Below, piece after piece: positions 1-1,819 of a stretch of 27,090 nt of DNA. The number at the start of each line of letters is the position of its first letter. The stretch's first letter is position 1. Source of the stretch: an uncultured archaeon (GTDB lineage: Archaea; Aenigmatarchaeota; Aenigmatarchaeia; GW2011-AR5; JAHLMP01); contig CAZYXF010000001.1 of the NCBI GenBank assembly GCA_964651025.1, forward strand, positions 1 to 27,090, written 5' to 3'. The notes under the pieces are model-generated. The model was not told the DNA's origin, searched no databases, and saw only the letters and a program-made list of their open reading frames with translations. The position numbers were made by a program, and so were the translations under genes.

Positions 1-208
1 CGATATCCGCGTTAACGAAATTCGGCAACTCTTCCTCAACAAATCGCTTGATCGGCGGGTTTTCTATTTCCTCTAGTCTCCCTTTGCAGAAATCGCAAAT
101 CGAATAGCCATCGCACCACTCAAGCAACGCTTTCCTAGCTTCTTCTGTCAGAATTCCACCTGTTTGCAATGGATTTATGTTTATGAGACCCTTCACCTTT
201 CTCCTCAT
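1..208 (-). CDS. pscS: Sep-tRNA:Cys-tRNA synthase (SepCysS), N-terminal 69 codons, truncated by the window edge
   Basis: Manual translation from ATG at 208: [69 protein letters not shown]. It carries the SepCysS signatures NPLQxGG and DGYS(V/I)CDFC. The ATG overlaps the sepS TGA stop (ATGA). Not in the ORF track. Confidence 0.93.
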
Positions 209-1731
209 TCTCTCACTATTTCGACGTCTATGAAAACAGGCCCCTTCACCATGAAGCTCTTTCGTTTAGAAAGCAAGTAGCTTTTCACAGGCTCCTTTAC
301 GTCGAGGTTTATCGAGGGTAATGTGTCGACTATTTTAATGGCGTGTTTTCCGATTTTGCCATCTTCAGCTAGTGCAGCGAAGTACAGCGAAATCGCATCG
401 AGATAGGAGCAGACTTTAACTCCATTCTCTTTAATTTCCCTGTATTTCTCGTCTCTTGGATCTATTCCAATTATCTGACCTCTGTAAACGTAAATCTCGT
501 TCATGCCAGCAGGTCCAAGCAACTTCTTTCCAGCTTCTGGCTCTGTGATGAAAACTTTGACGTTGTTTAAACTTCCAACAAAGAACTTAGCTGGCCCTAT
601 GTTATCGCGGTGTTTTAAAATTTCCTTCTTTATCTTCTCCGCAAGGATTTTACCTGCTCTTGTTCTCGGCTCTTTTATGAAATATATCGCTCTTGCTATT
701 TCTTCATCGCTGAATTTCACTTCGCTGTAAAACTGCGGATAAACGAGTTCACGAATGTCCTTTGCGCCTTCTAATATCATTGCTATCCTTTCGACACCAA
801 ATCCCAAATTAAAGACGAGATAGGGTATGTTGTATTTAGCCAAGCTGACAGGGGAGTAAAAGCCACCGTCCGCTATCTCTATGAGCTCATTTCCATGCTT
901 CACGAAAACCTCGAACTCAGTTCCAGGAGCATAATACTTTGAGGTCACCTCTTTCACCCTTATCTCGAACTCATGGAATCCAAGCTTCCTTAAGATAATC
1001 CTTGTTAGCTCTTTTCCGTCCTCTAAACTTAGTTTGTCGTTCACAACGACAAGCGATGCTGTCGTGCTTTCATAGAGATGCGTCGCATCTAGCCTTTGCT
1101 CTCTCCTGAACTTTACGCCTATGGAAAACAACTTCAATGGCAACGGCTTTCTCTTGAGCATGCTTGCTATGGTTTCAAACCAGGCTGAAGTCATGTGAGA
1201 GCGAAGTATAAGCTTCGTTGGAATTGGCTTCAACTCGCGGAATTCTGGAAAGAGGGCAAGCACAGCACTAGCTTGCTCTTCTCTTACTTTGAGTCTTTTT
1301 ACCATCTCCTCTATCAAATCGTCCGCCTCTATCTCGCCTTTTTTGTACGCCCTGAAAACCTTTTTCAGTTCTCTTATGTCAATTTCCGGTGCTATTTTTC
1401 GTATTTCTGCTTCCCTATCTTTCGATATCCCTATATCAGCCCTTGGTAGACCAGCGAGGTAGAAGCATCGATCGAGAATTATGGGTGCTTCTGGTCCATA
1501 CTGCTTATAAACCTCGCTCTCCTCGACTATCGTCTTGTTTATTACCTCTTCAAAACCCAACGAGAGAAATATACGCCTCATCTTCTCTATGAGATCGTTA
1601 ACGACATGGCTTTTTCCTTTCCCTTTAAACTCTATGTTTCTCCCACTTTTGGGAATGAGCTTTGCAGTTTCTATCCAGGCCTTTTCGTAGTCTTTCTTCG
1701 CCAGCTCGTTTATCTTTTTCACATCGAACAT
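205..1731 (-). CDS. sepS: O-phosphoseryl-tRNA(Cys) synthetase (SepRS)
   Basis: 508 aa with [35 protein letters not shown] (motif 2), [12 protein letters not shown] (motif 3), VYPQFY and C-terminal GPVF. Lies between tRNA-Cys and pscS. Confidence 0.96.
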
Positions 1732-1734
1732 CTT

Positions 1735-1750
1735 CTCACAAGCTCACAAG
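1735..1750. repeat. 8-bp tandem direct repeat (CTCACAAG x2) at the tRNA-Cys 3' end / sepS junction
   Basis: ctcacaag at 1735-1742 and 1743-1750. The second copy includes tRNA positions C72 and U73. Confidence 0.6.
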
Positions 1751-1819
1751 CCGGGGAGGGGATTCGAACCCCTGTGAACCGGTCTGCAGCCGGTCGCATA
1801 GCCACTCTGCCACCCCGGC
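1749..1819 (-). tRNA. tRNA-Cys(GCA)
   Basis: Reverse complement folds as acceptor GCCGGGG/CCCCGGC, anticodon arm ACCGG-CTGCAGA-CCGGT, T arm AGGGG-TTCGAAT-CCCCT. U73 and G37 present. No intron and no encoded CCA. Confidence 0.97.

Follow-up and report, generated by a model that had tools for sequence, protein, structure and literature searches.

Cysteine can be formed on its own tRNA by two enzymes, the synthetase SepRS, which produces O-phosphoseryl-tRNA-Cys (Sep-tRNA-Cys), and SepCysS, which converts it to Cys-tRNA-Cys; for this enzyme family, that sequence of reactions is well established (PMC5424206). The subject of this report is a group of three adjacent genes, for tRNA-Cys, SepRS (sepS) and SepCysS (pscS), at the left end of a stretch of 27,090 nucleotides (nt) from an uncultured archaeon (contig CAZYXF010000001.1, positions 1 to 27,090), the whole of which is referred to below as the window. 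An earlier note, made from the letters of this DNA, had described the pathway as typical of methanogens and Archaeoglobi and patchy elsewhere. This description is out of date, as the text of Mukai et al. (2017, mBio, PMC5424206) places SepRS together with SepCysS in DPANN, Euryarchaeota, TACK, Asgard, Hadesarchaea, Parcubacteria and Chloroflexi.

The closest described system is the operon of DPANN archaea and Parcubacteria. According to the passages of the two surveys available to us (Mukai et al. 2017, PMC5424206; Mukai et al. 2022, Front Genet, PMC8762117), the DPANN genes for SepRS and SepCysS often form one operon, sometimes together with tRNA-Cys. The first of these papers calls compact operons that contain tRNA-Cys "amenable to HGT" (horizontal gene transfer), and it reports from the Parcubacteria bin DG_74_2 an "archaeal type" tRNA-Cys with G37. 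The window unit has the same build: sepS is followed by pscS on one strand, a tRNA-Cys is present, and neither SepCysE nor SepCysSn accompanies them; furthermore, its SepRS falls in the clade of the Parcubacteria enzymes and its tRNA carries G37, as in the DG_74_2 bin. Adjoining sepS and pscS genes on one strand, with tRNA-Cys as an optional third member, are what characterizes the DPANN/bacterial-type SepRS-SepCysS(-tRNA-Cys) operon (Mukai 2017, 2022), and the published text describes nothing that would set the window unit apart in kind. The locus is very probably a compact operon for tRNA-dependent cysteine formation, with the order tRNA-Cys(GCA), sepS, pscS, within the SepRS clade of DPANN-type archaea and Parcubacteria. 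This operon type has already been published for both groups, and the novelty attributed to it in the earlier note was overstated.

Three other systems are instructive for comparison. A compact operon (tRNA-Cys, SepCysSn, SepCysS, SepRS) known from Bathyarchaeota BA2 and from archaea of marine sediments likewise packages tRNA-Cys with both enzymes, an arrangement proposed in the text of PMC5424206 to favour horizontal transfer; it differs from the window in that SepCysS precedes SepRS, in the SepCysSn helper peptide and in the clade of its SepRS. A comparably permuted order, pscS, sepS, tRNA-Cys, is found at one of the loci collected here, L109. The transsulfursome of class I methanogens, built of SepRS, SepCysE and SepCysS (PDB 5X6B, 5X6C, 3WKR), shares with the window unit the two-step chemistry, homologous SepRS and SepCysS, and the GCA, U73 and G37 elements of the tRNA, whereas the SepCysE gene is absent from the window and from beside the cassettes of its relatives, and SepCysS of the window type has no N-terminal extension. 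To our knowledge, the three genes of class I methanogens do not lie in a tRNA-led operon. Finally, the pylT-pylS cluster of tRNA-Pyl and its synthetase also links a dedicated tRNA to its own synthetase and to biosynthesis genes, and this linkage is thought to aid horizontal transfer of the coding trait (PMC5424206, in the text available); it differs in its amino acid and enzyme family, and tRNA-Pyl is a recoding tRNA whereas tRNA-Cys is a standard one.

Composition of the unit

The unit and the region before it consist of the following parts, listed in the direction of reading.

1820..1953, minus strand: AT-rich intergenic region of 134 nt, 5' of the tRNA (sequence)
1749..1819, minus strand: tRNA-Cys(GCA), 71 nt, first gene of the unit (ARAGORN; Rfam RF00005)
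1732..1748, minus strand: spacer TGTGAGCTTGTGAGAAG of 17 nt from the tRNA to sepS (read from the sequence)
205..1731, minus strand: sepS, encoding SepRS of 508 amino acids (aa) (TIGR00470, PF01409, PF18006, PDB 2DU3)
1..208, minus strand: 5' part of pscS, encoding SepCysS, 69 codons, cut by the contig end (translation; TIGR02539)

The last two genes share an ATGA overlap, the sepS stop codon TGA lying at 207..205 and the pscS ATG at 208..206. This layout, with the tRNA ending 17 nt before the sepS ATG, the sepS stop overlapping the SepCysS start and all genes on the minus strand, had been described correctly in every element by the earlier note, including the remark that the list of open reading frames (ORFs) missed the SepCysS gene; the reason for the omission is that the pscS frame runs off the end of the window. 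What each gene is, how the genes are ordered and spaced, and that the arrangement is conserved follow directly from the comparisons presented in this and the next section.

The SepRS scores 498 bits against the NCBIfam model TIGR00470 (sepS; cutoff 380.65) over profile positions 3-529 of 533, contains the class II core PF01409 and, at residues 411-439, the SepRS_C domain PF18006, and aligns end to end with the Archaeoglobus fulgidus enzyme (PDB 2DU3, E=6e-118). The structures of methanogen and Archaeoglobus SepRS reach about 380-398 bits with the window protein, against 1106 bits for its match to itself. Residues H179, T181, T224, S226 and N308-L-G310 of the window protein correspond to H186, T188, S231, S233 and N325-x-G327 of 2DU3, of which we take H186, T188, S231, S233 and N325 to form the phosphoserine pocket. 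Likewise, E397 and E399 align with E418 and E420 of 2DU3, presumably the anticodon-reading glutamates, at the two places where 2DU5 departs from the 2DU3 sequence. When 14 clade members are aligned, all the pocket and glutamate residues listed are invariant except T224, which takes the place of A. fulgidus S231. The text of PMC8762117 uses the Asn-X-Gly motif to separate true SepRS from SepRS-like proteins, which lost it, and the window enzyme has this motif as N308-L-G310.

The tRNA-Cys, with the sequence GCCGGGGTGGCAGAGTGGCTATGCGACCGGCTGCAGACCGGTTCACAGGGGTTCGAATCCCCTCCCCGGCT, scores 60.7 bits against Rfam RF00005, for which the gathering score is 29. Its acceptor stem is GCCGGGG/CCCCGGC, opening with the G1:C72 pair, its discriminator is U73, and the anticodon loop C-U-G-C-A-G-A (CUGCAGA) places a G at position 37; CCA is not encoded. 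When five cassettes are aligned, 49 of its 71 positions fall in invariant columns. The identity set of SepRS is given in the text of PMC8762117 as the GCA anticodon, U73 and G37, and direct reading of the sequence finds all three in the window tRNA, plus G1:C72, as had been listed by the earlier note.

In the window the pscS frame stays open for 69 codons up to the end, and this fragment matches the SepCysS model TIGR02539 with 98.7 bits over profile positions 2-67; its C38 and C41 correspond to C39 and C42 of A. fulgidus. The longest contig recorded for the cluster of the window SepRS has 27,090 bases, so that the window is apparently a complete contig, and no recorded gene encodes precisely this SepRS. 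The view further leftward comes from relatives, namely members of the SepRS cluster more than 90% identical to the window SepRS. A strain with 97% DNA identity is represented in three independent assemblies (ENA L027, Logan L028, JGI L029/L034) that span the junctions of the unit, and this identity extends over the genes for a CBS-domain protein and an OB-fold protein, tRNA-Cys, sepS and pscS. Its SepCysS is intact, with 371 aa and 571.8 bits against the TIGR02539 cutoff of 365.25, and the first 69 residues in L027 are identical to the window fragment (69/69). C38, C41, C246 and K208 of the L027 protein correspond to C39, C42, C247 and K209 of A. fulgidus SepCysS (PDB 2E7I); C246 and K208, the lysine of the pyridoxal phosphate (PLP) cofactor, lie beyond the window's fragment and are seen in L027 only. 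The protein starts at profile position 2, without an N-terminal extension, and aligns almost without gaps to 2E7I, its residue 2 to residue 3, with 500 bits.

No SepCysE gene, split SepCysSn or SepCysSN fusion was found in the window or beside the cassette in L021, L024, L025 and L027, and the junction leaves no room for a helper gene, given that the pscS match begins at profile position 2 and its ATG shares bases with the sepS stop codon. According to the available text of the two Mukai papers (PMC5424206, PMC8762117), SepCysE is confined to class I methanogens plus a few TACK and Asgard groups. The earlier note was right that no sepCysE is visible, but this absence is not remarkable, since it is expected for an A. 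fulgidus-like SepCysS that lacks the N-terminal extension.

Distribution of the arrangement

The neighbourhoods of 111 sepS loci, 80 of them added from metagenomes, were scored for tRNA-Cys and pscS. The order tRNA-Cys followed by sepS occurs at 19 loci, which represent 11 distinct lineages, and pscS comes next wherever the contig is long enough. Across these lineages the end of the tRNA ranges from 1 nt inside the sepS start codon to 17 nt before it, and every tRNA of the 19 loci has GCA, G37 and U73. In a neighbour-joining tree all of these loci fall in one SepRS clade, whose members are the window, further contigs on which the neighbouring genes are archaeal, and Parcubacteria. With 100 bootstrap replicates, the clade that includes the window is recovered at 77%, the Parcubacteria group at 99%, and that group joined to the archaeal sequences of the L021 type at 75%. 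By neighbour joining only, the window SepRS groups with the DPANN and bacterial clades (Parcubacteria, Aenigmatarchaeota), apart from the TRAX-linked clade I. Some 85 loci lie outside this clade and belong to Hadarchaeota, Bathyarchaeota, Asgard or unnamed lineages; in the 3-10 kb searched at each of them the tRNA-sepS-pscS arrangement is absent, and neighbouring tRNA-Cys and pscS genes are missing except at L109 (369-3029), the permuted locus mentioned above, where the tRNA lies 8 nt past the sepS match. The L109 SepRS is distant (44% identity), and its tRNA has A37 (CTGCAAC) in place of G37. The operon is the usual arrangement within the SepRS clade common to DPANN-type archaea and Parcubacteria.

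The closest SepRS, with 62% identity, is that of L021, a contig with archaeal ribosomal protein genes, on which 15 nt separate the end of tRNA-Cys from sepS, and 4 nt separate sepS from the pscS that follows. L024 (52% identity) has the same gene order and a 12-nt gap between tRNA and sepS. The bacterial SepRS proteins are 53-61% identical to that of the window and about 475 aa long, lacking some 35 N-terminal residues. On L025, named as Parcubacteria, and on L030, tRNA-Cys directly precedes sepS-pscS, and the neighbouring genes encode DnaB, RecR and DNA polymerase III gamma. In the Parcubacteria-type cassettes L039 (196-272), L025 (9928-10003) and L041 (1050-1124) the sepS ATG lies only 0-7 nt past the tRNA end, and in L039 the encoded CCA even overlaps it (CCATG). 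Such spacing implies that sepS mRNA in these cassettes would be leaderless, or nearly so, once the tRNA has been processed.

The flanking genes differ among lineages while the unit stays intact, and within Parcubacteria the flanks are conserved. Because it remains whole amid changing flanks, on archaeal and Parcubacteria contigs alike, the unit acts as a portable module on evolutionary timescales. Across deep time the whole three-part unit, G37 tRNA included, has probably crossed into Parcubacteria. In this sense the portable three-part module proposed in the earlier note holds, and no sign of a recent acquisition by the window genome was seen. The OB-fold and CBS genes were considered as extra members of the unit and rejected, as they accompany the cassette only in the strain of 97% DNA identity.

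A genome that also encodes CysRS, in which the cassette would serve mainly as a route of cysteine biosynthesis and would not be the sole route to Cys-tRNA, is a real possibility, although we lean against it. On L030 (7922-11948), tRNA-Cys, sepS, pscS and cysS stand in a row, so that both routes to Cys-tRNA are in one apparent operon, with cysS directly after pscS; a DnaB gene with an intein is nearby. Several methanogens also have both routes, according to the text of PMC8762117. However, cysS is absent from the 27-kb window and from beside the cassettes of the relatives in archaeal context, L021, L024 and L027.

Predicted expression and transfer

The 17-nt spacer at 1732..1748 contains no oligo-T run, and a bacterial promoter/terminator scan found no terminator-like site in it; the same scan gave nothing above shuffle expectation, its sigma-70 model being unsuited to archaeal promoters. 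Since the spacer lacks such signals and 17 nt is too short for an archaeal promoter, transcription is predicted to read through from the tRNA into sepS. The 134-nt region at 1820..1953 has TATA-like stretches (AAATTTATTT and TTTAAGG) and a T5 run; we infer that it is the only possible site for the promoter of the unit, and the T5 run could terminate the upstream OB-fold gene. GTGAG stands at -8..-4 from the sepS ATG, the same five bases stand at -8..-4 before the pscS ATG, and L021 and L035 have GTGAG at the same offset before sepS. The full motif GGAGGTGAT precedes the Pop5 gene of the window. The GTGAG elements are plausibly Shine-Dalgarno elements.

From these features a course of expression can be proposed. 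One transcript would start in the AT-rich 134 nt 5' of the tRNA and continue through it into sepS. RNase P and RNase Z would then excise the tRNA, to which CCA would be added later, and the 3' cut would leave a sepS-pscS mRNA with a 17-nt leader carrying the GUGAG Shine-Dalgarno-like element. Translation of pscS would be coupled to that of sepS by the ATGA overlap, with its own GUGAG at the same offset. SepRS would charge the tRNA-Cys with O-phosphoserine by reading GCA, U73 and probably 1-methylguanosine at position 37 (m1G37), and SepCysS, a PLP enzyme, would turn Sep-tRNA into Cys-tRNA by means of three conserved cysteines and without a SepCysE scaffold.

Archaeal tRNA genes are often single transcription units, and the three genes might accordingly be adjacent but separately expressed, with a transcript end proper to the tRNA and a promoter for sepS-pscS inside or overlapping the tRNA gene; the T-loop segment TTCGAAT, about 35 nt 5' of the sepS ATG, would suit such a promoter. 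This is unlikely, as the tRNA body is G+C-rich and has no TATA-like box, the spacer has neither an oligo-T run nor a terminator-like site, and a spacing of -1 to 17 nt kept in 11 lineages of two domains is hard to explain without a shared transcript.

A broader proposal is put forward tentatively and held with somewhat less than even confidence: the tRNA-first cassette (tRNA-Cys with G37 and U73, sepS, pscS) may be a single mobile coding unit that passed from DPANN-type archaea to Parcubacteria together with its tRNA, and in which the 5' end of the sepS mRNA is made by 3' processing of the tRNA, leaving it leaderless or near-leaderless in the bacterial copies.

Several points weigh against the operon and its transfer as set out here. 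The clade members L037, L038 and L042 have sepS and pscS, and no tRNA was found there by ARAGORN or Rfam; L031 and the Aenigmatarchaeota loci L015-L017, also in the clade, have neither tRNA-Cys nor pscS as a neighbour. In view of these loci the tRNA-first arrangement is not obligatory. The trees are by neighbour joining, and the position of the window shifted between two of them, so that the direction of transfer between domains is only moderately supported. In addition, pscS is truncated in the window, and its integrity is judged from the strain of 97% DNA identity; spacing alone is the ground for predicting co-transcription, the sites of processing and a role for GUGAG.

Integrity of the locus and the host genome

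The earlier note had raised three doubts about its own account: that pscS might be a pseudogene, that the contig might be chimeric at this point, or that the genome might be that of a methanogen or Archaeoglobus relative. None of them was borne out. The locus appears to be neither chimeric nor a pseudogene, because the three assemblies of the 97% strain span its junctions with an intact SepCysS, and the A. fulgidus SepRS lies outside the window clade in both trees.

That the cassette was acquired horizontally in recent times, or that assembly or binning created a chimera with its join at the tRNA, is largely refuted and now very improbable. In favour of this reading, tRNA genes are common points of integration and of assembly breaks, the window contig breaks off inside pscS, those of the 97% strain both stop 38 nt past it, and window markers give discordant nearest relatives. 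Against this, the three assemblies come from different samples and were made with different assemblers, yet all run through the OB-fold gene, tRNA, sepS and pscS at 97% DNA identity, and no integrase or repeat was seen. The GC content is flat across the window (42-47%), and at third codon positions (GC3) it is 0.48 for sepS and 0.51 for pscS, within the range of 0.40-0.59 of the other 26 window genes; recent transfer is rejected on these grounds, and the cassette appears from its composition to be a long-standing resident of the genome, with no sign of recent import.

The contig ends deserve a separate remark. Both L027 (6332-6369) and L028 (3162-3199) stop 38 nt past the pscS stop, ending in ATGCCGGGG; the same nine bases lead into the tRNA-Cys gene at its 5' end, and the contigs may therefore break at a second tRNA gene or at a repeat that disrupts assembly. 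The window contig ends earlier than these, inside pscS. At its right end a partial tRNA gene (27038-27090, minus strand; Rfam 41.4 bits, model positions 20-71) is cut off, and both ends of the window contig thus fall within genes, one of them a tRNA.

The window is clearly archaeal, with genes for the RNase P proteins Rpp30 and Pop5, aIF2-beta, RpoK, archaeal DnaG, uS2, archaeal-type PheRS, ProRS, TrpRS and TYW1. Its nearest relatives depend on the gene chosen. PheRS-beta (23682-25358, plus strand), with a best identity of 49%, stands in its tree among sequences whose only names are Aenigmatarchaeota, and the best match, L033, has the same gene order pheS, pheT, minD as the window. ProRS (15961-17460, minus strand) shares 64-70% identity with a group that its tree places as sister to Thermofilaceae and Infirmifilum; L032, of this group, matches the window in ProRS (68%), a CBS protein (70%) and a GT2 glycosyltransferase (64%), and encodes carbamoyl-phosphate synthase. 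This discordance possibly means that genes were received from Thermoproteota, or that the lineage has been poorly sampled. The reduced, DPANN-like genome suggested by the earlier note is therefore plausible, though unproven. Its observation that no methanogen-type genes are in view carries no weight, as 27 kb of housekeeping genes are all that the window offers. The named best matches for PheRS-beta and ProRS include no methanogen and no Archaeoglobus.

A methanogen or Archaeoglobus relative with vertically inherited sepS and pscS is scarcely tenable as the host: the 500-bit, near gap-free match of the 97% strain's SepCysS to 2E7I and the matches of SepRS to the A. fulgidus, M. jannaschii and M. 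maripaludis structures would suit it, but those structures (about 380-398 bits) score below all 120 database matches listed (505-701 bits, the window's own entry aside), none of these 120 is named as a methanogen or Archaeoglobus, the A. fulgidus sequence is outside the window clade in both trees, the nearest named relatives are Aenigmatarchaeota (PheRS-beta) and Thermofilaceae (ProRS), and bacteria carry the same SepCysS type in the published text (PMC5424206), so the A. fulgidus likeness is not lineage-specific.

As for habitat, the contig Ga0190367 of the 97% strain belongs to the same Ga01903xx series as contigs that the text of PMC8762117 assigns to Guaymas Basin vent metagenomes, and this strain may thus come from the Guaymas Basin.

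Other genes of the window were noted in passing. Just 5' of tRNA-Cys and on the same strand is the gene for the OB-fold protein of 124 aa (1954-2328, minus strand; PF01336, tRNA_anti-codon type), followed further 5' by that for the protein with a CBS domain pair (2331-2777, minus strand). Between the TrpRS gene and the CBS gene the 97% strain has an extra 1.65 kb (L027 971-2620), where the window has 53 nt (2804-2856); the segment carries genes for a TrpB-like PLP enzyme (NF009057, 634 bits) and for a small TK0271-family regulator, and the difference next to the TrpRS gene is a strain-level insertion or deletion. The enolase gene (12250-13305, plus strand) in the conserved rpoK-eno-rps2 cluster encodes a short and divergent protein of 351 aa, which scores 147 bits against TIGR01060 (cutoff 300) and whose N-terminal domain match covers only about 46 residues; it may be a degenerate enolase. 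A 501-aa ORF at 17596-19101, between the ProRS and PmbA genes, has no family match. The TldD-like and PmbA-like ORFs (19249-20742 and 20526-21929, both minus strand) overlap by 217 nt as listed, and PmbA probably starts at a codon further downstream.

The unit adds a well-verified archaeal example to the published operon class of DPANN-type archaea and Parcubacteria, and it leaves the known distribution of the pathway unchanged. The fixed tRNA-first order, the spacing of -1 to 17 nt that 11 lineages share, the confinement to a single clade and the ATGA and GUGAG features were not found in the text of PMC5424206 and PMC8762117, whose figures may show them; the contig identifiers searched for are in none of the supplements consulted for these papers.

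What the comparison brings forward is the combination of a tRNA-first order with a very short gap between the tRNA and the start codon, across 11 lineages of two domains and within one SepRS clade. The conserved short gap makes it a testable idea that expression of the synthetase is coupled to the processing of its own tRNA, and the comparison speaks for an exchange of the complete unit between DPANN-like archaea and Parcubacteria. If the cassette does prove to be a single mobile coding unit, it would represent a conserved mechanism that ties the output of a synthetase to the maturation of its own tRNA.

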